Source: Gekko japonicus (taxonomy: Eukaryota). Taken from it: a stretch of DNA of 64,000 nt. Location: assembly GCF_001447785.1 (NCBI RefSeq), contig NW_015173124.1, positions 1,817,441 through 1,881,440 on the forward strand, in the 5' to 3' direction. Under the pieces are notes generated by a model, which was not told the origin of the DNA, did no database searches, and saw nothing but the letters and a program-made list of their open reading frames with translations. This document shows positions 7,007-47,084 of this stretch, piece by piece (positions within the stretch are counted from its first letter, which is position 1; every line of letters begins with the position of its first letter). The translations under genes and the position numbers were made by a program.

Positions 7007-9489
7007 TATCCAGAGCTGAGGCCTGACATTCGAAACTTAGTTGGAGATTGAGACATACTGAGTCCTGCCTCAAAACCCCTACTGCACACACAGACACACA
7101 CAATGGAGCTATGCACGATGTCCAAAAGGGTCCAATGCCTCTGCAAAAGGAGTAAAGGGTTTCCTAATTCATTTGCACATGATGCATATGTAAATAGCTA
7201 CAAGGAAGAGGCCTGTAGAAGCTCTGTAGAGCTTGGAGCACAATAAATGTCCCCTTTCCTCAGCTCCATTTCCAGGACTGCTAGTTTTGGAGAAGACAGA
7301 CTCTGCCACCCTGGGAAAAAAACAGGGAAAAAATGTGTGCTTGTTTGGGAAAATGGAAAGCTCACACTGAAAATGGCCAGAGAGAGCTAAAGAAAGAAAC
7401 TCCAGTAGCCTAGCTATTGTGTTATGACACTTTGGCCTAAGCAGGGGTCATTTCGTAGAAAAAGAGGTGCAGGAGCTCATTAGCATAACTCATTAGCATA
7501 ACGTATTTGCATATGCCACACCCCCTGACATCACCGGAAGTGCGTCAGAAGGCAACACCCACTGCTCAGGCTCCACTGGACTGTTTTGGATTGCTAGCTA
7601 TTGGGGGGGGGGAACGTGCAGATCTGCCCTTGCAGAGGAGGGAGAGCTTGTACCTAAATAAAACTTGGTCTTAAAGGTGCCACTGGACTGTTTTGGACTG
7701 GGGGGTCAGCGGGAGGGCTCTGCAGCTTACATGGCTGCTTCTTGCTCTGACTGAGGGCTGCTGGGACCAGGAGGTGGGGCTTGTTGCATGTGCCCACCCC
7801 CTGGGCTCTTTACTGCCAGAGCTCTGCTCCGATGTGCTCCTGCAGGAAATGACCCCTGGGCCTAAGTATGGCTGGGAAAGGCTTGTACAGGCAAAGGTGA
7901 AATCCTTTCTGGCTTAGGGTTCCACGAAGCTGCAATGATTCTGGAAAATGTTTTATAGGTCACTTCTAGTTTTTCATACTTTGGAGTTTTCAGAGGAGCA
8001 TGACACAGGTTATGAACCCTTTTTTACCATCAAGTTGTCAGACCCCAGTCCAGTTATGCTCAACAACTCTCTCTTTGGCAGTGATAAGTTTATTGGAGTA
8101 TATGCAAGATCCAGAAAGTCACTGTGTCAGAACTAAAGACTTTTGGCGAGCACAAGCTTAATATAGTAAGTTCAAAGAAAAGCCCCTTCCCCTTCTCCAC
8201 GCATATGTCATACACATACCACGCCTAGTGTTGCCATCCCAACCAAGGGAGAGATATATGGCTTGGTTATCTACATTCGAGGATGGCACAGACAGCACAG
8301 AAAGCCTCTCAAGGTCACCTTCCCTTGGGAACGCAAAAAGGGAGGGAAGGAGGATGACTGGGAAGGTTAAGTCTTCTAAAAGCAAAGGTCTCATTCACTC
8401 ATACACACCCCCTCCCCTAAGGAATTCCCTCCACAAGCGCAGTGGTTTGACACAAGCCACAGATGATTTATGCAGGGCAGGAGCTTCCATAAGGTGGGGT
8501 TAAGCAATTGCCTAGGGCGCCAGCTTAAGAAAGCGCCCTGCTGGCCTGTTGCCCCTCCCCCTCCCCTCCCTCACCAAAGCCCTGCTCCTCCGCTCGCACA
8601 AAGAGGGGGGACAGAGCCAGAGAGAAAGTTTGTTCACCATTTCCAGCGCTGGTGCCGCCGACGTCACCTTGGCCCCCTGCCTGCCAGTCCCCAGCACAGT
8701 GGGAGAAGGAGGTGTGGAGGTGCGCAGGCCAGGTGGGAAAGCCAGATACCTTTTAAGAGCCGCTCACCCACCTCTCGACCCAGGGAAGAGGAGGCCGCTG
8801 CCACTGTGCATGTTGGGCAGGCCCCGTGGGAGCAGGGGAGGGGGGAGGAGGAGGTGGTGGAGGAAGTTTCCCCCTCCTTCTCCTTCACTCCCTCCTTCCC
8901 CCTCCTTGGCCGGTGCTGGCAGCCAGGCTGAGAGGAGATGTGGCACACAAAGGCAGGCAGGCAGGTCAGCTCACACCCAGGACCGGGGTGGTGGCAGGGG
9001 GAACTGGTTCCACCAGTTCCTGTGGGGTGGAGGAGGAGAGGTCAGGCCAAGAGGGGCGTGGGCGGGGGCTGGCTGGGGTCTATGGGGCCCAGGAGCAGGA
9101 AGATCCAGTTGCTGCCCCGTGCAAAAGCCCAGCTGCTTTTGAAAGGCGAGCCGCATTGCTTGCAACGCGACCATAGATTGATTGCAGTCAGTGCTGCTGT
9201 TGTTCTTCAGACCCCAAAAGTGTATCTTGCAATAAATGCTGAGCGATTGGGAGAGCCAGTGTCACCAGGAACGCGGTTCTGGTCTTGAAGGTGCAGTGGG
9301 ACCATCTGTTTGCTGCGGTGAGGACGCCTGGAGGTGGGCAGGGGAAACTGCCGTCAAGTCACAGCCAATGGATTGCAACCCCTGATGGAGGTTTTCAAGA
9401 TGAGAGGTGAACAGAGAGGTGGTTGGCCATTGGCTGGCTGCGCATAGCAAGCCTGGGCTCCCTTGGTGGTCTCCCACCCAAAGACTCAG

Positions 9490-13254: not shown

Positions 13255-14105
13255 ATTTCGGAGGGAGGTCATCAGAAACTTAGTTGCCAACAACGATGGG
13301 AGGAGGATTTATTGGCTTGCTGGGATGGAACAGACTGGAAGAAGGTGTGGTCCTCGCCAGCTAATAACTCGAATGTCTTTAACATTCGGCTTCAATTTTT
13401 TAAATTGTTCTCGAGGTGGTACATGACACCATGTAAATTACAGAAGATAAACATGAACAGTGATCCACGCTGTTGGAAAGGTTGCGGGGAGGTTGGTACC
13501 TTTATTCACTGCTGGTGGGCATGTCCACGAATGAGTAATTTTTGGGAGGACGTTCGGAAGGAGATCGCTGACATAACTTCGATAGATCTTAGTCTTAAGC
13601 CTGAAGTGTTTCTGCTGAACTACTGGGATAATGATATGGATGCTAGGAACAGGGAAATTATCTCGATGCTTCTGGCTGCAGCGCGTTTGACATTAGCGTC
13701 ATGTTGGAGGTCTCCTCATCCTCCAACGATAGCAGCCTGGCATGAAAAAATATGGGATCAATTTGTGATGGCTAAGATAGCAGATAAAGTACATAGAGCT
13801 CAAATTTTACGGTCCTCTAACCTCAAATTTGAATCAACCTGGTTCCCGATATTTTCATTTCTTACTTCACGGGGCATATTGCCAATAAATACCTGTTACC
13901 AAAAATGGGTTCTGATGTAACATACTAAGAGTTGAAATTTAAAGGATGCTTTCGTTATTTGTTATTATTATCTCTGGGGCTTTAAGTTCAAAAATACCTG
14001 AATGATACTGTAACTCTTTTGTAGGAATGTCGAGTGTTTATTATTGGATTCTTTGCATGTTCTTGTTTGCTTTGTTATGAAAAATGAATAAAGAGAAATT
14101 AAAAA
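13255..14105 (+). mobile_element. 5'-truncated L1 (ORF2 C-terminus, 3' UTR, poly(A))
   Basis: Cys-rich CWKGCGEVGTFIHCWWAC motif, AATAAA at 14087, A-tail, 13-bp TSD AAAAACGTCTATT at 13242-13254 and 14106-14118. Confidence 0.9.
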
Positions 14106-15373
14106 AAAAACGTCTATTCGTTCTATACCATTTTTAGCTGCTTCTGCGCTAACCATTTAGTCTAAAATTGTTCTCTCTTGTTTGGTCACCCATTTTAAAC
14201 AGAGAATCATCAGCAATCCATTGCATTCCAGTGTTTTCTTCTTCTTCTGTTGTTCGTCTTTTTTCAGATCCAATTTGTGGTGATTAAAAAAACCAAAACA
14301 ATAATAGTGCCAGGCTGTCCAGTGTGTCAAAACACTATTGAAGTTTCTCAAGGCTGCTGTCCTTCTAAATTTTGCTTCATCGCTTCTGCTCCTAGTTTAA
14401 TTAAATACTGCCTGTTCTTTTGTAGCTGGCTAAGACATTCCTACATCATTATCAGCTATTGTTGAGGGGGAGGCCTGCCTTCAGTTTAATCAGCTTTATT
14501 AAAGCAGAACACAACAGGAGGGATGCTGGTGTGGCTTCCACAGTACATGCGGCTATCTACTGGAATGTGGCTGAGGTGAGTTTTAGGATTCCCCCTTTAA
14601 ATCAGGATTAAGCCTTGTTCAGCTTCCCTTCATCCTCATCAGTTAACAAACAAAACAAGCATCATAGCAACTAGGACAACAGTATTGTGTGGGTCCTGGG
14701 AGCTTTCCAGAAAAATCCCCAGTGGGCAAAAGAGAAAGAGAAGACCAGAGGAACTTTTCCTTCTGGTGTCATGCAAAAATGGCTTTCTGGGTGGTAGTAG
14801 ATGGTCCACAAGACAGGAACTCCCAGAACATACATTGACGTAATGAATGACTACTGCTGGAATGGATGGAGCCTTCCTGATTAAAACAGATTCTTTTAGC
14901 AGTGGTGTCAGAACCTGGAACATAGGGAAACTGGGAATTTGGAGTCAAGTGTGAAGTACTGCTAGACACATTTTTCTCCAGCATGCTGTTGCTTAGAGAC
15001 CAAGAACATAGAAGTGTCTCTGTTTTCTGAAGCCTGTTGTTGGCAGGGAGTTCAAAAAGGGATGGGGGTGGGGACACAGATGTATATGTATTGTGATAAA
15101 ACTTTAGAACTAAATGTTGAAAATCCACCCATCCCTCCTCACTTCTCCAAAATGACAATAATAATATTTATGTTTTAACTCTATGGAAATTATTTCTTAA
15201 TGGCACATCAGACTGAATTGTAGATTTTTCTGTTCCCTGTATGTTTTAAGCTTAACTGAATAATGCTTGGCTCACACAAATTGGTTTTGCTTAAGTCACT
15301 AGTGGAGAAGCTCTGTGTAATGTTCCTCCTCTGCTCATAAGTAATTTAGGAAATAGATTGCTATGGTGACAAC

Positions 15374-15583
15374 CAATTCTCCCTCTAAGCCGTGCAGTCT
15401 TGTGAGCAAAACTACTTTGTGAGCTACTGGCATTAAAGTTGGGGGTGAGCAATTTGACTACTGCATAAATTAGTTTGCTCTGGAGGCTGGAGCCATCCTT
15501 CTTTAGCTAAGACATAAATGTGTGAACCGGAAGCTAAAAAACTGTGAGCCAGCTCACACTAACTCAGCTTAGAGGGAACACTG
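15374..15583. mobile_element. hAT MITE
   Basis: TIRs ...CCCTCTAAG/CTTAGAGGGAACACTG; TSD gtgacaac/atgacaac. Confidence 0.7.
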
Positions 15584-15899
15584 ATGACAACCACTAGCTA
15601 CAGTGGCTTTCAGAAAGATTAGACAATAGATCTATTCATGCATGTTAATCAGGATAGCCAATAGTGGCATCTTCACATTCAGGCAAAGGACCCCCCCCCC
15701 AAATACCAGATGAAGGGCACAAGCACCAGGGATTGGTCAGCTGCTCTATATGCCATATGAATGCCAGCTTAAAGATAGATTGCTGGACTAGTCGGACCTG
15801 ATCTGATCCCCTCTCATCCAGACTAACCCAGTTCATTTGCTTTTGGATTCACCCATTGGGGAAGGTAATATTGACACTGAGACAGTCTTCACCCATCCA

Positions 15900-18800
15900 A
15901 TGGCAGAAGCTGCACTGACATGCTGCCTGCTCTCACTGCTTGTGATGCTGTCATGTTACTTGGCTTTGCCCTGTGAGGAAAACGAAGTAGAAACGTTCAG
16001 CCAGGAATACAAACAGCTTTTGGAGTTAGGTAATCCCTGAAGATGGCAGTGGTCTGCATTGCTTTTGTCAGCGCGTGATGGCAGCTCGGCTGGGTTTGCA
16101 AGCAGGGATCTCTTTTCCGTCTCCCTGTGTGGGATACACGGCTACAACCTCTTGGGTAAGGGAAAGCTGTTTAGCCAGTATATAATTGGCCCATCTTGCA
16201 GAGAAGGGAGGAGATACTCTATGACCATGCGTGTTTGGTGCTCAGCATACCTTGGCAGAAATACTGGGTATTAGAGAACAAAGTTTGAGTCCAGTAGCAC
16301 CTTTAAGACCAACAAAGTTTTATTCAAGGTATAAGCTTTTGTGTGAGTGCACACGTCCTCAGATACATTGAAATGGAAATCAACACATACATATAGGTAG
16401 AGGGTGAGCAGCAAATTAGCACACAACATAATGAAAATGTTTTAACAGATGCAAACAGGAATAACAAGGTAAATGTATATGGTCACCATTTGTTTGGACT
16501 TAATTATGGGGGAAAACGCAGTGGAGCAAATAAATATGTCAAAATAGGAGATTAATGAGTAAATGCATCCTTCTTAATTGCGGGGTGCCTTCTCCTTGTA
16601 GCCCAGATCCAGAAGTGGAGTTGAGGTTCCTTGCAGGAATTAGTGCCGAGACTTGAAGTGCTTGTAATTAAACAGTTTATACATCCCCTCACTTTTCTTC
16701 CCAATGGGGTCTCAGTGTGGCTTATATCATCTATCTCCCTTCTTCCACTTTATCCTCACAACAACAGCCCTGTGAGGCAGGTTAGGCTGAGGGAGAGTGA
16801 CTTGCCGAAGGCCACCCAGTGAGCATCCTTGGCAGAGGGGGGAGGATTCAAGCCTGGATCTCCCAGATCCTTGTTCAGCACTCTAACCTCTACACCACGC
16901 TGATTATTGTCTGTGCAGATGCCACGTGCAAGGAGCCTCTGATTTGGCTCAATTCATCTGCCTCAACAGAGCCCCAAAAGAAGCTGAAGGACCAGGTAAG
17001 AATGATGCAGAACAGACCTTTTATTGGTGGACTGACATCTGAGCTCCTGGTCCAGCCCAATTCCTCCTTGATCATACAGCTCTCCCTTGTCTGCAAGACC
17101 TCTAGTTTGCCTGCCCCAACTGGCTCCAGAAGGAAGGCAAGTATAGAGAGCCATACAAGCTCGCATCTTCCCCTGCTGCCCTTGTCTCTCTTTGCATAGG
17201 TCCAGCCTTCCTTCTCTTGCCGGCCATCATTTTATGCTTCCTGGCCACTCTATCCACTGGGGTTCATTTTCCATCCTCTGCCTCTCAACCCCAGCTTTCC
17301 ATCTCTTCCTGCTGCTTCCCACAGATACCCACTGTTTATGTCTCTTCCAGGGTTTGGGTGCACCGGCCACATCAGGCAGCCCCCATGATGTAACCACGGG
17401 GGATGTATGCTGGCTACCTGCTCCTTATTTCAGGGAATGTTTCCTTGTTTAGTATTAATAGTATTAATAAAAATACTCCTGAAACCAATTAGATGTACTG
17501 TATCTACAAAAAGAAAAACGAATGCATTATGAGGATGGAATATTCCATAAAACACCATTCTGATGTATAAAAATGTTATTTGCCTGCTGTCCCAAAATAT
17601 GTGCCTGATTTTTGGAGATGTTCAGCTGGCACCTCTTGAGGGAAGCTCAGAATTCCTTTTGTGACCACAGTGCGCTTACACCAAAGTTCCTGGTCACTAA
17701 GCTTTGCCACCTCACCAAAAAAATGGCCTGTGCTGTTCTTGTGTCTTTAATGTGATCTTGAGCTACCAAAACCTGTCAAAAGCATGGAGATGTTACCAGA
17801 GGTCATTTCGGGGGGGATCGCGGGGGATCGCAGTTTCCCCGGGTGAGGTACGGGGGCGGGGCACATGACGAAGCCCCCCCCCATTTCCGGCCGCCGCGCT
17901 TCCGGCCCTCAGTCAGACAGGAGGAGGCAGGAGAAGAGGGAGGGTAAGTTGCTTCCTCCCTGCCTCTCCCCACTCCTGCCTGCCTGGGGCCAGGGAGGGC
18001 CTTCGTGGGGCTTCCTTGCACTCCCGCCGGCCTTGCAGGTCCACCGCCGGGCCCCTCATGGGGCTCGGCAGTGGAGCTGCAAGGCCGGCGGCAGTGGCCG
18101 GGACCGTTGGGGGTAATGAGTTATGCTAATTAGTTCTCCTAGCTCTTTTTCTATGAAACGACCCCTGGATGTTACCATCTGCTAGTATCTGCACATCACT
18201 GCTGTTAAAGGTTAAATTACACAAGCTGGATGAAAAGTTCCAGAGGGGTGGGCTACTATTGCAGGAAAATAAAACAGGAGTCCAGTGGTACCTTAAAGAT
18301 TAACAATATTTATTCCAGAATGAACTTTTTTGAGTCACCACTCACTTTTTCATACAGCATTAGGAAAACTCATATTGGAATAAATGTTGCTGGCTGAAAC
18401 CCTAGGGGGGGGAGTGGGACTTCCCCCCCCCCAAAGCTTTACTTTGCTGAGGGTTTGTTTTTTTTTTGGTGTGTGTGTGAGAGATCTAACTTCCATGTGT
18501 TCCCAAGGTGTCACAAGACAGGTTACCCAGTTAAAGTCCATCTGCCTTCCATGTCTTGACTCCTCCCTACAAATGTAGTTGATTCTGGAGGTGATTAATC
18601 ACAAGTCCAGCTGCGGTTCTGTCCTCATGGAAACGGAATTTTTGCCATCATTGTTCAAAATGGACCTCTCAAAGAAGGAATGCTGGTAAGCAAAATTGGC
18701 AGGCACACAATTCTCTGATCCGCCAGGAGAGGGCAATGCATTCATGTTATCTACACTATCCATTGTTTGGGGGAAATGGGCGGTTTTGATTCTTGCTTGC

Positions 18801-21800
18801 TGCGCTTCGGGACAGTGACAGCAACAACCCTCGGAAGGATATTGTGAAAAAGAAGTTATGGGAATATTTTTAGGAACAATGGCTTTTCCAGCACAGAGGA
18901 GTGATCAGGTTAGCTATCTATAGTTTATACATGTTTGTTTACAGAATTACTGTCCATGGGGTTTTCTTGGCAAAGATACTGGAGTGGGTTGCCATTTCCT
19001 TCTCCAGTGGATCACATTTTGTCTGAGTTCTCTGCTGTGGCCTGTCTGTCCTGGGTGGCCCTCCACAGCATAGCTCACAGCCTCATTGAACCACGCAACC
19101 CCCTTGCCACATCAAGGCAGTGATCCATGAGAGAGTTTCGAAGAGGTAGAGGAACTAGAGATCAAATTGCCAACATTAGCTGGATTATGGAGAAGGCAAG
19201 GGAGTACCAGAAAAACATCTGCTTCATTGACTATGCTGAAGCCTTTGATTGTGTGGATCACAATGAACTGTGGCAAGTCCTTAAAGAGATAGGAGTACCA
19301 GACCACCTCACAAAATCTCTTGAGAAAACCTGTATAACGGTCAAGAAGTGACAGTTAGAACCAGATATGGAAGATCTGATTGGTTTAGCATAGGAAAAGG
19401 AGTATGACAAGGATGTATATTTAATTTGGATGCTTATTTAGTTTATATGCAGAGTACATCATGCAAAATGCCAGCCTGGATGAATCACAAACTGGAATTA
19501 AGATTGCTGGGGAAAATATCGATAACCTCAGATATGCAGACGATACCACTCTAATGGCAGAAAGTGAATAGGACCTAAAGAGCCTCTTGCTAAGGATCAA
19601 AGAGGAGAGCGCAAACGTTGGCTTGAAACTCAACATCAAAAAACCCAAGATCATGGCATCCGGCCCCATCACTCCTTAGCAAATAGAAGGGGAAGTCATG
19701 GAAGCAGTGACAGACTTCATGTTCCTGGGATCCAAGATCACTGCAGATGGTGACTGCAGCCATGAAATTAAAAGACGCCTGCTCCTTGGGAGGAAAGTGA
19801 TGGCAAACCTAGACAGCATAATAAAAAGCAGAGACATCACCCTGCCAACACCCTGGGTATTCCCAGTAGTAATGTATGGCTGCAAGAGTTGGACTATAAG
19901 GAAGACCGAGCACCAAAGAATAGATTCTTTTGAAATAATGGTGCTGGAGAAGACTCTTGAGAGTCCCTTGGATTGCAAGGAAATTGAATCAGTCAATCCT
20001 AAAAGAAATCAACCCTGACTGTTCCCTGGAAGGCCAGATACTGAAGCTGAAGCTCAAATACTTTGGCCACTGAAAAGTACTCAGAACGAAGAGTGATTTC
20101 AGCAAGAGTACTTTATTAGGTGAAGAACAAGACAAGAGAAACCAGCTCGCAGGCCAGTTTATATGCGTTCAGAAAACCCGCCACCAAGCACACCTAAACA
20201 CACCCCCTACTCCCGATAGGCTATTTACAGTAACCGGGCGACCATTGGTCTCCCGGCTGGGAAGCTGGCCCTTTGATTGGGCCGGCTAGGATCCTTCGGA
20301 TCCTTTGTCTTACGACTGAAGCTATGGAGAAATACTGCCTGGCCAGCCCGGGCAAGTCCGGACATGTCAGGCTGAATGCATTACACGTGGTAATGGCGGC
20401 AGTACATTACAGCCACCAAATGAGAAGGAAGCACTCACTGGAGAAGACCCTGATGCTGGGAAAGATTGAAGGAGAAAGAAGAAGGGGATGGCAAAGGATG
20501 AGATGGTTAGACAGTGTTATTGATCCAACGAACATGAAATTAAGCACACTCCAGAGCACGACGGAAGACAGGAGGGCCTGGCGTGATGTGGTCCATGGGG
20601 TTGCAAAGAGTCAGACTCGACTGTGCAACTGAACAACAAATTTACAGAATGTATACATCACTTTTTAACATAAATGTTCAAGACAGTTAATGAAAGGGGG
20701 GAAAGATAAATTAAGCAAATAATATTATAAAACAATTTAACAGAAGCAAAAGCAACTGTGAACACAGAATTCCACTTAATCCCCCCCAAATACTTTCATT
20801 TGTTCCAAAAGGAACATAAACAAGCTTCTTAAGAGGTGTTAATACCATGGCCTGAAATTTTTATTTTTCTCCCCACTCTGACTTTTTGTCTGCTGAAAAA
20901 TTCTGGAAAATGTGAAAGAGTACAACATTTCATGTAAGTTTGGTTCCTTCTTACATGAATTGTTTTAGTTTATGGATGTGGCTTTGGACTGATGTGACTA
21001 TCTGCAGTCTCTCACAAGACACTGTATTCCAGAACTTCAGAGGCGTGACCAAAAAGGCCCTGCTTCTCCTGGAAGTTGATCCATAACTCCAAAAAGATGG
21101 CACTTAGAGCAGAGGCTTATTGACAGATCTTAAAGCTCATCTGCAAGGACCAGCACTTTGGATTAGTAGCCAATGTGTGTATTTAAGAACTAGTGTATTA
21201 TTTTCTTGCCAGTTCCTATCTGGTAGGTCAGTGTTTCCCAACCTGTGGGTCATGAAGTCTCTGAAAGTGGGTCACAGTCCAGCCACCCTAATGGTGGCTC
21301 CTGCCCTTTCCATCCTTGTCATTCTTTCTGTTTTACCAACCTCACATTTTCATCTCCTCTTCCCTCTTTGTGAGAATAATGAGGAGAAAAAAAGTCATCA
21401 GGCAACTAATAACTTCATGGCAGTAGCTGAAAGAAGGAGTGGAGGCTGGAGAGTAGGTGCCACAGAAAAACCAGAGGATAAAAAGAGGCGTGTGCATGCA
21501 TGGGCTCTGTCTTGGTGCTGGTCCTTCAGCAGTACAACCTCCTGCCCAGACCCCTGCATTGGTTCAGTGACCTCTACCTGCTGCTGTGGAAGACGTACTG
21601 CACCAATCCCCCTCGCCGCCAACCTCTTTGCTGCCATCTGCCAACTCCTCCGTGTATCAGCTCAGCCCAGCACCCCTGAGCATACCTCCTCAAACTCTGG
21701 CTCTGGCCCAGTTGGCAGAAGAGAAGGATGTTGGGGTTCATAGTAGTGTGTGATGTGTGTTGGTTTCTCAAAAACATCTGGTTTGCCACTGTAGAAAATG

Positions 21801-23834
21801 GAATTATGGAATAGATCAGTGCCAAGGTAATAGTTTTCCTAGAGCACCAAAAAACCTTGCTCCAGCCCTTGATGGGTCACTATACGAAGTCAATTTGGAT
21901 GTGTGGGTCACCATCCAAAAATGTTGAGAACTACTGTGATAGATGGCCTTTCGTACTTTATTAGACCATTTTCAAAAGCAGCTTCACATGGTTCAGGTAG
22001 CAATGGGCAAATATGGCAGTTATCAAAATAAGAGTGGCAGTAGCCATGCAGAAAGGAGCTGCGGTGGCTCAAGTGGTTAAGACGCTGAACTGCAGGCTGT
22101 GGAAAGTCAGTAGTTCAGCAGTTCGAGACCCGAGTTGCCGCATGACGGAGTGAGCTCCCATCTCTAGTTCCAGCTCCTGCCAACCTAGCAGTTTGAAAGC
22201 AAGAAATTGCAAGTAGATAAATAGGTACCACTTTGGTGGGAAGGTAACAGCGTTCCGTGCACCTTGGTGTTTAGTCATGTCGGCCACATGCTTATCACGG
22301 AAACGTCTTCGGACAGCGCTGGCTCTTCGGCTTTGAAACGGAGATGAGCACTGCAACCCTAGAGTCAGATTCGACTGGCTTTCGAGCAAGGGAACCTTTA
22401 CTAGCCATGCAGAATCATAGAGTTGGAAGGGACCTACAGGGCCATCTAGTTCAACCCCCTGCACAATGCAGGACATTCACAAATACCACTCTCCCTAGTG
22501 ACCCCTGTTCCCTGCCCAGAGGATGATAAAAAATCTCCAGGATCCCTGACCAAACTGGCCTGGAGAAAAATTACTTCCTGAACCCAAAGTGGCAATCAGC
22601 ATTTCCCTGGGCTTGTAAGAAAGGGAACTAAGCAATGATGCAACCCTTCCTGCCCTCCCTCTCATGATCTGCTCTGTCTTCTGGTAATGTACAGCTGCTG
22701 GAGAATTAACCAGAACCCATAAAGGCACTCAGCCATGTCCACCACATGGCAATCCAGCAGCAATGCTGGTCCCATGTATCTAGGTGGTTTACAGTAAACC
22801 ATAGACAAAAAGAAGTCATCAGTAAAATTGAATAGGAATACTATACCTCAGAACTACTAAATACAGGGCATTTTTTGGGCAGAAATGCACAGGAACGAAG
22901 TTCCGGCTGGCTCCCAAGTTGGCCACACCCAGCAGGAACTCATTAGCATAACAGGCCACACCCAACAGCAGAAACTCATTAGAATTGGCTACAGTAGGCG
23001 TGTGTGGCCTAACATGCAAAGGAGTTCCTGCAACAAAAAAAGCCCTGGGTTTTGACAACAAACAAGGTAAACAGAATAAGAAGCAAAAGGTGGGTGTGGC
23101 TGGATGACCATACTTCTGGTAACATGGGAATGCAGCCTAATATGCTAATGAGTGGTGCAATCAGGGGTGTGGCCTAATATGCTAATGAGTTCCTGCTGGA
23201 CTTTTTCTACAAAAAAAGCCCTGATTAAATATAAACTCACATTCAGTGTCTACTTAAATGCAGCCTAAATAAAAAGATCTTGCATTGCCTACCTAATGTC
23301 TTCTGGAACAGGCAATAGTCCCCGCTTCACCCCTTGGAGTGAAGACAATCAGTCATAGAACATTCTTCAGCTGTGGTGTGAACTCATCTCCACAATTTAC
23401 ATATCAGATAGACAGACCAACATGCCAAAGCTATCAGCCATACCATTGTCTTCCTGTCTACTTTTTAAAAAGCAGCTGATGTATGTTTGTTTACCTGTTC
23501 ATCATCAAGCTTTGCACAAAGGAATGGGGTAGTAGGAGGTTGTGTTGATGAAGTCACATACACTAGTCAATCTAGATTTTTACCAATTCAAACTGAATCA
23601 CACATCTAAATTGCAAAACTACCTTTTAGATGTGGCTGAAGACAGTGAATGCTACAGTCATATCAAACATGGTGAGGGGGCTTCCAAACCGGTATACAAT
23701 GCTGCATTTATCAACTAGCTGAAGGCAATTTTAAAGATGGGATTGATTCATGTGGTATCTCTTGACTGTCTCTTTTGTATTTTTGCAGGGTACCGATTTG
23801 TATTGTTTCAAATACTTGCAGAAGACCTTTCTGA
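15900..23834 (+). CDS. Candidate unannotated secreted-protein gene or recent pseudogene; exons 15900-16029, 16919-16995, 18579-18685, 23789-23834
   Basis: Signal-peptide-like N-terminus and canonical splice sites; phases 1/0/2 join into an open 119-aa frame. No homolog recognised. Confidence 0.35.
17797..18167. mobile_element. GC-rich hAT MITE
   Basis: TIRs CAGAGGTCATTTCG/GAAACGACCCCTG; perfect 8-bp TSD GATGTTAC; near-identical to 50614-51082. Confidence 0.85.
18948..20640 (+). mobile_element. BovB (RTE) LINE, decayed, with an apparently inverted 5' segment and a nested LTR
   Basis: RT motifs GRGTRDQIAN, FIDYAEAFDCVDH and LRYADDT; SLEKTLMLGKIEG; (CAA)n tail; TSD TTTACAGAAT at 18938-18947 and 20641-20650. 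Confidence 0.9.
20071..20411 (-). mobile_element. Solo LTR nested in BovB
   Basis: Minus strand reads TGTAATGTAC...GTACTTTTCA; 5-bp TSD GCCAC; AATAAA on the minus strand. Confidence 0.85.
21229..21936. mobile_element. hAT-Charlie-like non-autonomous element
   Basis: TIRs CAGTGTTTCCCAAC/GTTGAGAACTACTG; degenerate TSD tggtaggt/tgatagat. Confidence 0.65.
22054..22401 (+). mobile_element. Sauria SINE
   Basis: Full length; 13-bp TSD TAGCCATGCAGAA. Confidence 0.85.
22412..22680 (-). mobile_element. CR1 LINE 3' end
   Basis: aatcatagagttggaagggacc...catctagttcaacccc is antisense to a CR1 tail. Confidence 0.65.
22864..23223. mobile_element. hAT MITE (CAGGGC-TTTTT TIR)
   Basis: TIRs; TSD actaaata/attaaata; internal duplicate terminus at 23047. 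Confidence 0.7.
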
Positions 23835-26548
23835 AACGATTTCCTGCTTTCTTTAAACTATCGCCTTTTCCAGCTTAAGTGGGGTCTCCTAGAAATGAAC
23901 TCCATATGATAGCATTCTTATTAGATAACAGGACACTGCTTTTCCATCTCATCAAATATATGAGATAGTTCAGAAAAAAAACTCTGCCCAGATTCTTCTG
24001 TTATTTTTACTTTCGGCCTGGCATGGGATGGTGGAGTGGGAAGAGCCACCTTGAAACACCCTCCACTGTGCTATAATTAACTGCATATAAAAGCAAGCAA
24101 AATGGCTGTCATACCACCTAATATCTCACTAATATGATTTAGCCAACTCCCTTGAATAGTAAAACCCCTTTCCAAGAAGAACTACATTCTTGTTTTATAT
24201 TAGTTTATTTTCGACATTTACCTTTTATTTTAAAGGCAAATCAATGGTGATATCCATGAAGTGAGACTTCTGCATATGAGAGTAGAATGAGTCTACTTTA
24301 TCCCCCACCTTTGCTTCCTACCCCTTTCCTCATTTTGTATTTTGCATCATCTCCACTAGGCTACCATGGGATTCTGCACAGCAGAAGAAAAGACACCAGA
24401 CAAAGAAGTCTTACCCACAGGCTTTGTGTATGAACAGAACATATATCTATGAGTTCATCAGCTTAACAAGTTTCCCTTCCAAGAAGGAACTGTTTGCCTG
24501 TCCCACTGTGCTATTTCATGGCAGCTTGCATTGCTACTTCAGTTTGGTTAATTATTTCTTATCAACCTAACAAAAGGACTGGGGAAAGGGGTGGAGGATC
24601 CATGACATCTAGAAACTCCACCACTGTTCTGACTCCACCTAAATTCCTCAGTACTTTGCAGGCCATATTAGAGACTAGCCCTGGGACAATTAAAACAGGA
24701 GCAGAGGTATACAACAGTCACATTTTCCTTTCAAAAGATGGAGAAATAAATGAGTCTTGGAAGTGGAGACAGTGGTAAGAGAAGAGAAAGAGCAACCTTT
24801 ACCAGGATTTTCTTTAAAAGGCTACATCTACTACATAAAAAAATAGAATTGCCACCTGACCAGAAAAAATCACCTAATGTACTCTTGTGTCTTTAACAGC
24901 AACTTGATCTGGATAAATCAGAAGTGAAACTTATCTCAACATTTGACTCCTTGTTGAGACCAATATGACTACCTGTTAATATCTACACAGGAAACTGTTC
25001 TTAGAGGCACCACTATAGAAGATTTTTTACAAGGTAGCAGTCCTATTTAAAAGAGGATACTATTTTTTTTAAAAAATTATACTTGTATTGATAGTGACAT
25101 GCCAGCCAGTCCAGCAGATCTTGAGCTTAAAGGGGCAGTGGTGGTCTTACATGGTCTATGAGTCAAGCTGCTTTGTTTGGCCACAGCCCACAGAGGTTTG
25201 CCAGTTCATATTAAAGCTGTCAGTTTTTCAGACAGCCTCTGCAGCTGTACCTTTAAGGGTGACTAGTTGTACAGACATTAGCCAGCAATTCTTCTTGTCC
25301 CTAGGCTATGAAAAGCCTCAGTCACTGATTTGTGCTGCTAAAGGATTTTTCTGATCAGCTGGCAATTGTAGTTTACATGAGTGGAAGTTATCAATCAGAC
25401 TAGTCAGTTGTATGTGCAAATCACAACTTAAAAGAAATCATAACCTTTAAATTAAAACTGACACAATGATATATTATGAACAATTCAAAACAAATGTAGT
25501 TGCAATTTTCTTGTCTAAAGTTCTGCATGGTGTTAATCTCTAACAGACATTATTCAGTGAAAATCAGTTATTCAGTAGCAAATACGTTAATTCAGCTTCA
25601 GTTGTAAGGCTGCTGACCTGTAATTAAATCCTGTTTACTGTAATGCGATTTAGGACTGATACTCAAGATCACTTAAGCCTAATGGAAGGTGCCCAACAGC
25701 AAAGAAGAGGAAGGTTGCAGGGCCTCTAAGAGGTGTGTAAAAAGAAAACAGAAAAGTCCTGTAGCACCTGAGACACCTGAGATAGTGCCACCCTTAGCAG
25801 AATTACATCCTAAACCAATTGAAGTCAATGAGCTTAGAGAGGAGTAACTTTGCTGAGGGTGGCAGTGTTACTGTACAAAAAAGAGCAGCTCATCCTGCAG
25901 GAGCTGAGAAAAGCTACATTTACTGAAATTCTCTCTGCAACATACCCTGGTGTATTTACAATCTGTGTGGTGATAGGTTTTCCCCAAACCTTTTACTGCT
26001 AGTTTGACATCTACACTAGGGTTTGCGATAGTATCACACACACACACACTTCCCACACTGTACATTCAGTCCCTTGAATCATTGATGGAAAAGGGTATTT
26101 TATTTCTGAAATGGCATAAGACATCCCGCCCCCCACACACACCCTGTGCATGCTCACACACACCAGTAAAAGGTACCTGTTTTCCCCATGTTTTGAGCCG
26201 GCAGAGGTACAATAATTCAGATAAATTAGCAATACAGTATGCAATATGATCCTCCTGTGAATATTTAGGTTTATTTATTTCATTTATTCAGAATATTTCT
26301 ACATTGCATCAGGGTCCAAGTTGTGACCCGTTAAAAGATTTAAAGGCCAAGGCTGTAAACAGAAGTAAATTCCATTAGGTGCAGGTTGAAAATTAATTTT
26401 TTAAAGTTTCCCCTACTCTCAACAATTCTAGAATAATTCACATGCTACATATATCGAGGTCGTAATTTCCAGTTAAATACATAAGGGGAAAAGTGTCCTG
26501 CTTCCTGCCCTTTCTGAAAGGCCCCTGCCCATGGACAGGCATGAGGAA

Positions 26549-26766
26549 CTGGTCATCAGAGCCTTTTATCCACACACGGATTCCATCTGCTGTTTAAGAC
26601 CACTTTTACCTGGTGTATATATCGTGCTTGAATTTTTAGTCTGCAATACAGTATTTTCCAAACTGTGAAGAGCGCTAAAAAATTCAAGCACGATTTATAA
26701 GCCAGGTAAAAGTGGATTTAAACAGCAGATCGAATCCGTGTGTGGTTAAAAGGCTCTGATGACCAG
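26549..26766. repeat. Long inverted repeat (about 91-bp arms, about 35-bp spacer), MITE-like
   Basis: 26549-26639 is the near-perfect reverse complement of 26675-26766. Confidence 0.85.
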
Positions 26767-27257
26767 CTCAATTGGGGCCTCTTCTCTACCTCCAGGATTA
26801 ATAATGTTCCAGGCCTCGGATGAAGAAAGGAGAGAGAAAGGAAATCTCCCCGTTTCCTTTCTATGTTCCCCTTTGAATTTCCTCTTCTCATCGCAGAGAA
26901 GACTCACAAGTATTTCCGTTACAAAAAGAAAGAAAAAATCATGCTCAGCGGCTGTCTGTTTAAGAACCAACCCCAAGTACTTCCTCTGGGAAAAGAAAGA
27001 AAAGCTCGGCCGCGGCATTCCCTTTAAGAACTGACTCCGCCCCCAAAGTGAAGGGAGGGGTTCCCTACTGGATGACGTCTACCTCTCCCATTGATAAAAG
27101 CGCCGGGATTCCCTCGGCCGTAGGTAGAGAGCGTACCGAAGTTCCGTTGCCGGCGCGCCACGTGGCTTTGTGCGGGACTGGTGGAGGTCTTGGGCTGGCC
27201 GAGGGCTGACCAGTCCCACCTCCTTTCCCTGCCGTAAGGAAGCCACCCCTGTTAATA

Positions 27258-47084
<19,827 letters not shown>

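Follow-up and report, generated by a model that had tools for sequence, protein, structure and literature searches.

A candidate unannotated gene for a small secreted protein upstream of PLK3 in Gekko japonicus, with a possible short-chain cytokine layout

Results and discussion

A candidate five-exon gene upstream of PLK3

We describe a candidate gene in a 64,000-nucleotide stretch of the Gekko japonicus genome (contig NW_015173124.1, positions 1,817,441 to 1,881,440; G000:C13414:1817441-1881440 in our numbering, where G000 is this genome), hereafter the window, whose positions are counted from its first letter. The candidate lies on the forward strand upstream of a gene that we take to be PLK3 from its translations and BEST4 neighborhood, and it probably represents an unannotated real gene or a recent pseudogene. 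Our preferred interpretation, which is tentative, is a weakly expressed gene of five exons, the third of which is one base off in this assembly. Its product would be a secreted glycoprotein of small size and, by prediction, a short-chain cytokine with four helices, of the TSLP/IL-7 type. That the product is a short-chain helical cytokine at all is likewise a possibility that we place somewhat short of an even chance. An initial annotation of the region had proposed a hidden gene for a secreted protein of 119 amino acids (aa) from four exons and had offered, as an alternative, a further exon of 42 nucleotides (nt) that could be used if the preceding exon had lost one base. The ATG at 15900, the exon coordinates, the phases 1, 0 and 2 and the open 119-aa frame of its principal model are all present in the DNA.

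The first coding exon (15900-16029, 130 nt) extends from this ATG to a phase-1 donor; it encodes a predicted signal peptide (approximately residues 1-22) followed by a predicted helix (residues 27-42), and contributes +5.2 bits in the coding model described below. Exon 2 (16919-16995, 77 nt, phase 1 in and phase 0 out) carries one cysteine and an NSS sequon and has the strongest donor of the region. Exon 3 (18579-18685, 107 nt; +4.2 bits), entered in phase 0 and left in phase 2, interrupts the phase-0 pattern and combines a weak acceptor with a good donor, as does exon 4 (23630-23671, 42 nt, phase 0/0; +1.4 bits), which carries an NAT sequon. The last exon, exon 5, has the strongest acceptor, and its coding part in the phase-0 frame comprises 29 codons and a stop (23789-23878; +3.8 bits). 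As had been claimed, the 42-nt exon joins 23789 in phase 0 with the stop ending at 23878. Read in the phase-2 frame, exon 5 reaches a stop at 23834 and scores -6.9 bits versus +3.8 for the phase-0 frame. Exons 1, 2 and 5 were each picked by an unguided gene finder.

Splice sites were ranked with vertebrate splice matrices among the 558 GT and 822 AG sites of positions 15000-26000. The donors of exons 1-4 rank 28, 1, 5 and 8, and the acceptors of exons 2-5 rank 38, 125, 155 and 1, so that the candidate has two very strong splice sites (the exon 2 donor and the exon 5 acceptor) and two weak acceptors (exons 3 and 4). About 150 nt before the ATG a possible core promoter, with a reverse CCAAT, an E-box and a TATA-like TATAT (15733-15751), can be weakly read from the sequence; there is no CpG island at this candidate promoter (CpG observed/expected ratio (o/e) of 0.08 over 15400-15900). 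The exons were correctly described as lying between transposons: all five are in unique DNA and single-copy in this genome, and repeats account for 46% of the intron span, as defined with a repeat library from 394 kilobases (kb) of local sequence.

These exons can be joined in several ways. Exons 1-2-3-5, in phases 1, 0 and 2, give the open 119-aa frame, which has the six cysteines after residue 22 and the single NxS sequon initially reported. When all five exons are joined as assembled, the frame closes with a TGA formed where exon 3 meets exon 4; the product then has 104 aa, and its stop precedes the last junction by 44 nt. Skipping of exon 3 leaves open frames of 98 and 112 aa in the phase-0 reading of exon 5, whereas taking exon 3 as symmetric results in a five-exon reading of 148 codons; the exon 2 donor, exon 4 and exon 5 are concordant on phase 0. 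The TGA, the open frames upon skipping of exon 3 and the probable extension of the last exon to about 24777 (see below) go beyond what the initial annotation contained. The break in exon 3 would reflect an error of assembly or else a recent loss of function, and the coding score did not locate its position inside the exon. Using 18611 as the acceptor of exon 3 keeps the five-exon form open (137 aa), but at a score of -1.3, and was rejected. Separately, the unguided finder chose a 54-nt exon-like piece in phase 0/0 on the forward strand (17351-17404), which lies in unique DNA and has good sites; it may be an alternative exon or have arisen by chance.

Statistical assessment of the gene structure

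A splice-only finder, which looked for three good introns behind an ATG with a signal-peptide-like start, was calibrated on order-3 Markov copies of the region. Of 300 such nulls, 14 reached the splice sum of the four-exon model (49.8), as did 3 of the 34 real tiles of 11 kb; as there are about twelve tile-strands per window, splice sites and signal peptide alone are not remarkable. Coding potential was scored with a 3-periodic model built from 1570 codons of PLK3, a neighboring bestrophin gene, a neighboring open reading frame (ORF) with leucine-rich repeats (LRR) and WDR36. On leaving one gene out at a time, three of these four scored positive (0.085-0.17 bits per codon) and WDR36 failed. 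The 119-aa model attains 0.032 bits per codon, which was matched by 170 of 2000 nulls, and a TSLP-like gene that we located in this genome as a control attains 0.043 (114 of 2000). The five-exon reading reaches 0.108 bits per codon, matched by 11 of 3000 nulls (22 of 3000 for the mature part alone), and exons 1-3 by themselves are also coding-like (42 of 3000). As the exons had originally been selected for their protein-like look, these guided values are optimistic.

The unguided finder combined signal peptide, splice and coding scores over models of 3-5 exons, with a penalty of 12 per intron that was our own choice. Its best model, with a score of 35.2, contained exons 1, 2 and 5 (in phase 0) together with two 54-nt pieces (17351-17404 and 21213-21266). 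None of 600 Markov nulls reached this score. Among 112 real tiles, 3 did, all of them built on exons of PLK3 or WDR36 that had served for training. The core of exons 1, 2 and 5 is significant, and exons 3 and 4 are less certain. Since the phase-0 frame of exon 5 was picked without guidance, the five-exon, 148-codon reading is a better model than the 119-aa form, which the initial annotation had preferred.

Predicted protein and comparison with short-chain cytokines

The signal peptide is predicted from a hydropathy of up to 3.0, a heuristic score and a helix at residues 2-22 followed by a break; AlphaFold2, run on the single sequence of exon 1, returned helices at 2-22 and 27-42 with a predicted local distance difference test (pLDDT) score of 83. 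The mature chain would have about 126 residues in the five-exon reading, with an X at the break, and 76-97 in the forms open as assembled, compared with about 115-155 in the TSLP/IL-7 group. The amphipathicity of the helical segments that the initial annotation had noted is not above that of shuffles, but neither is that of the TSLP-like control, so that this measure is uninformative. Cytokines of this group typically have phase-0 introns in their mature coding part. Introns 2 and 4 of the candidate are in phase 0 and intron 3 is in phase 2 as assembled, so that the phase-0 pattern of the group is not found here.

In the five-exon reading cysteines are found at 25, 47, 81, 104 and 125. Four of these five mature cysteines are spaced 0, 56, 79, 100 versus 0, 56, 76, 103 for human TSLP C34, C90, C110 and C137 (PMC5382266), an agreement within 6 residues in total with a chance of 0.36% for that template. 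The same source gives the TSLP disulfides as C34-C110, C69-C75 and C90-C137 and the mature length as 131. TSLP resembles the candidate, taken in its five-exon reading, in its signal peptide, mature length (131 versus about 126), an N-x-T sequon separated from the fourth cysteine by a phase-0 intron, little detectable conservation and, though only modestly, the spacing of four cysteines. The candidate differs in its locus, five exons, phase-1 first intron and frame break at exon 3; it has one cysteine at the place of C69-C75, so that the short pair is absent, and it lacks both a basic furin cassette in the CD loop and in-register sequence similarity. IL-7 has a small phase-0/0 exon and then a last exon starting with a cysteine-bearing helix, and the candidate appears alike in this and in its short-chain size; it differs in its locus and in having the signal peptide and first helix in a single exon. 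Orthology to either was rejected: the TSLP-like exons sit upstream of WDR36 on C11799 and IL-7-like last exons on C14120 and C10571, whereas the candidate is on C13414.

CYTL1 (PF15153) is, like the candidate, a small secreted cysteine-bearing protein with an early helix. The candidate was rejected as CYTL1, whose own ortholog lies elsewhere (C15708); it is absent from the 11 PF15153 matches at E <= 10 and shows no pairwise similarity. A precedent is provided by IL-15L, which PMC3894449 describes as an old short-chain cytokine known through locus inspection only, intact or a pseudogene depending on the lineage, located between PLEKHG2 and SUPT5H and marked by an LXTP motif and two cysteine pairs; the candidate exons have no LXTP. 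It is fair to say that the candidate appears to be laid out like a short-chain cytokine, with membership of the group argued from size, exon layout and cysteine spacing only.

Under our preferred five-exon reading, low or inducible transcription would start from a non-CpG promoter near 15750, and splicing in the order 1-2-3-4-5 would give a 148-codon precursor whose signal peptide may be cut near residue 22, the product then being secreted and N-glycosylated. Helix A would come from exon 1, helices B and C from exons 2 and 3 and helix D from exon 5, the CD loop being formed by the 42-nt exon, with Cys25-Cys104 and Cys81-Cys125 possibly pairing like the two long-range disulfides of TSLP and tying the four-helix bundle. 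Such a protein might bind a class I receptor pair (IL-7R-alpha with a CRLF2 or gamma-c type chain) and signal through JAK/STAT. The gene as assembled would instead yield the 104-aa product without helix D, or the exon-skipped forms of 98, 112 or 119 aa.

Homolog searches and a TSLP-like control

Searches with exon 1 gave three candidates among proteins of 77-2000 aa, none of which scored, and, among 1.84 billion representatives, a single match to a 696-aa tandem-repeat ORF, which was rejected. An alignment of stacked exons gave 128 candidates, none scored; its profile kept only 24 positions and was therefore uninformative. The ESM Atlas offered no usable match to exons 1 and 3, Pfam no family for the four exons other than exon 4 (too short) and the PDB sequences no match to exons 3 and 5; within this genome, paralogs of the candidate exons were limited to weak matches (E 0.87-10), none exon-like.

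The TSLP-like control gene lies upstream of WDR36 (G000:C11799, about 489,560-496,270, forward strand), with exons ending at 489685 (donor uncertain), at 490238-490273, at 493012-493149 and from 496118 onward. All its introns are in phase 0, and it shows seven cysteines in the assembled part and a basic CD-loop stretch; its start codon was not found. Its exon 3 (46 aa) returned 9 candidates and no match in the protein collection, the Pfam TSLP model also misses its exons, and Pfam barely detects IL-7 in this genome. As this control is equally blank, the failed homolog search with the candidate shows neither novelty nor absence. Lack of a detectable homolog is expected for a real lizard cytokine, consistent with PMC3894449.

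Another locus (L012) was rejected as TSLP, WDR36 being on another contig. IL-7-like last exons were found at C14120:45823-45924 (reverse strand) and at C10571:1040731-1040991 (forward strand). The latter has a premature stop and may be a pseudogene or a duplicate; on C14120 no further IL-7 exons turned up upstream. Exons of CRLF2/gamma-c-type receptors gave 7 matches in the genome, 3 of them above the cut-off. A literature search for synteny of the PLK3 neighborhood with cytokines, interleukins or TSLP in reptiles, chicken and teleosts, in part by title or opening of the abstract, returned nothing on this locus, and the accessible portion of PMC4690019 makes no mention of PLK3.

Transcript evidence

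None of the 15 runs with the stretch is recorded as RNA, and 8 of the 15 have a small share of it; the RNA nature of the four runs whose contigs were examined is our guess. Contigs from three of these four probable RNA runs (two studies) supplied 8 pieces at a depth of 2-3, of which 7 fall within 23795-24777, behind the strongest acceptor. On random placement in the searched stretch all pieces fell within the last exon in 0.3% of trials when counted as 7 pieces and in 1.3% when counted as 4 fragments. One piece ends 27 nt past the AATAAA at 24745-24750, the only such signal in 23400-27300. This low-depth cover, for which contigs give neither strand nor end, is a weak hint of a polyadenylated last exon running to about 24777, of which 23879-24777 is the likely 3' untranslated part. 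Gaps in contig cover of 23400-26200 prove nothing, and the contig cover is no evidence for the upstream splices. The remaining piece lies at 25721-25871, and low-depth contig pieces from run X1 fall in 25721-25986, beyond the last exon of the candidate and about 1.4 kb upstream of the PLK3 start; we regard this cover as background or promoter-upstream transcription.

Weighing the alternatives

Several observations weigh against a five-exon TSLP/IL-7-type gene. On the side of gene structure, the five-exon frame is broken as assembled, being one base off at exon 3, and of the bridging exons that might restore it, 2 passed strict thresholds and 8 relaxed ones, but none was convincing. The unguided finder left out exon 3 both with and without the coding score and preferred the two 54-nt pieces over exons 3 and 4; moreover, the small size of the coding model (1570 codons) and its failure on WDR36 limit the coding score itself. 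Folded alone, exon 3 shows no helix (pLDDT 55). Intron 1 is in phase 1 at codon 44, inside the mature protein, whereas the control TSLP-like gene has phase 0. The cysteine match was obtained with a template picked post hoc; with any four of the six TSLP cysteines allowed it was equaled in 752 of 20000 trials, and the chance is higher still if other cytokines are admitted. In-register comparison of the candidate with this genome's own TSLP-like exons was matched by 177, 1979 and 836 of 2000 shuffles, that of exon 5 with the IL-7-like last exon by 1429 of 2000, and that with CYTL1 by 1238-1839 of 2000. For the whole protein against the TSLP-like control, the best value in 16 related tests was 13 of 2000, in an alignment out of register. 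As to expression, raw reads were taken from three RNA samples, all from one study and of unknown tissue (3-12% of every run), and the stretch included no control gene; depth was zero in the bins holding exons 1, 3 and 4 and in those of 23792-24599, and outside those bins it was repeat-borne only. The contigs of the four probable RNA runs contain no splice junction and no loose end and leave exons 1-4 uncovered; the junctions 16029/16919, 16995/18579 and 18685/23789, which the initial annotation had singled out for an RNA check, are accordingly missing from these low-depth contigs. The proposal of a hidden secreted-protein gene stands on the statistics (11 of 3000 and 0 of 600 nulls) and weakly on the last-exon cover; the cytokine alternative stands as the better gene model, its likeness to IL-7/TSLP being without in-register similarity.

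Confinement of the cover to the last exon would also suit a non-coding transcript, in which only the exon from 23789 to about 24777 is real, good splice sites and a hydrophobic start having lined up by chance upstream of it. The frequency with which such chains arise in nulls and real tiles, the missing homolog, the broken frame and the inflation of coding scores by the manner of exon choice all speak for this explanation, which we nevertheless regard as unlikely, if not strongly so: the unguided score exceeds all 600 nulls, exons 1-3 are coding-like on their own, and the TSLP-like control exon is just as blank in homolog searches. The four-exon 119-aa form could itself be what functions, as an acidic secreted protein of small size that has three disulfides but lacks a cytokine fold. 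It is open as assembled, has an even count (6) of mature cysteines and uses the strongest acceptor; its 14 codons in exon 5, however, score -6.9 bits, the model as a whole is matched by 170 of 2000 nulls, and the well-phased 42-nt exon and the 29-codon open phase-0 frame would be left unexplained, which makes it quite improbable.

Because the 119-aa form shares with CXCL17 its size, cysteine count, exon count and second-last proline, we also considered that it or the exon-3-skipped forms might be a chemoattractant whose C-terminus acts on some G protein-coupled receptor, in the manner of CXCL17 and GPR25. In published work, CXCL17 is recognized as a secreted protein below 200 aa with 4-8 cysteines, four or five exons, Xaa-Pro-Yaa at the C-terminus (Xaa and Yaa large aliphatic), an isoelectric point (pI) of about 10 or higher, a CXC-CXC-C-C pattern and LIPE as neighbor (10.64898/2026.05.18.725876; also 10.64898/2026.01.18.700233, PMC12905490), and its genes are said to be often unannotated in reptiles (10.64898/2026.05.18.725876). 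The 119-aa form, secreted, below 200 aa and encoded by four exons, fits this profile with its six cysteines, and both frames of exon 5 end with proline second-last (RPF and FPA). The residue before the proline, however, is not large aliphatic, the mature pI is 4.7-6.4 (7.8 for a weak-acceptor variant) versus about 10, and the cysteines of the 119-aa form (25, 47, 81, 104, 109 and 115) include no CXC pairs. Exon 1 is also longer and the last exon shorter than described, and the neighbors are PLK3, the LRR membrane-protein ORF and the bestrophin gene, not LIPE, whose own position was not found; the zebrafish gene cxcl17-like maps elsewhere, according to PMC12905490. Orthology to CXCL17 was rejected on charge, CXC pattern, flanking residues and locus, and a chemoattractant of this kind is highly improbable.

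Genomic context

The five-exon candidate is embedded in the order bestrophin gene (C13414:1773486-1783757, reverse strand), LRR ORF, candidate, PLK3. The first coding exon of PLK3 (27258-27452, forward strand) lies outside the candidate gene, and kinase and polo-box exons follow to beyond 46207; in mammals, BEST4 adjoins PLK3. The LRR ORF (427 codons, G000:C13414:1799466-1800749, reverse strand) encodes a single-pass membrane protein, matched by Pfam LRR_8 at E 7.7e-14. Its tail contains seven tyrosines, and we take it to resemble the tails of GAPT/LRRC25-type adaptors. GAPT adjoins PLK2, and we know of no LRR adaptor gene of that kind beside mammalian PLK3. On the reverse strand, a CpG island at 40-1140 of the window (o/e 0.73) is accompanied by several donor- and acceptor-like sites and by an open frame of 137 codons (18-431) that has no Pfam match; the LRR gene possibly has its 5' exons here. 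Positions 8400-9200 have a GC content of 0.62 and a CpG o/e of 0.30 and hold no recognized gene, and Rfam gave no matches in 14000-27500. The repeats of the region presumably include BovB-like LINE and SINE elements, which point to a squamate.

Implications

New vertebrate cytokines are rare, and IL-15L, IFN-upsilon and non-mammalian CXCL17 all came from locus inspection. A bolder version of our proposal, which we consider plainly unlikely, is that squamates keep between BEST4 and PLK3 an intact, undescribed third member of the IL-7/TSLP group that was lost in mammals. The break in exon 3 would then stem from a private allele or from faulty assembly, and the candidate would stand head to head with the LRR adaptor gene, equally unrecognized so far, as a small immune locus. 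Should the candidate be a recent pseudogene or a non-coding transcript, it would be of little interest. If the cytokine reading is true, a further IL-7/TSLP-type ligand outside mammals would alter the account of the origin of the IL-7R-alpha ligands and would provide a new signal for reptile immunology.

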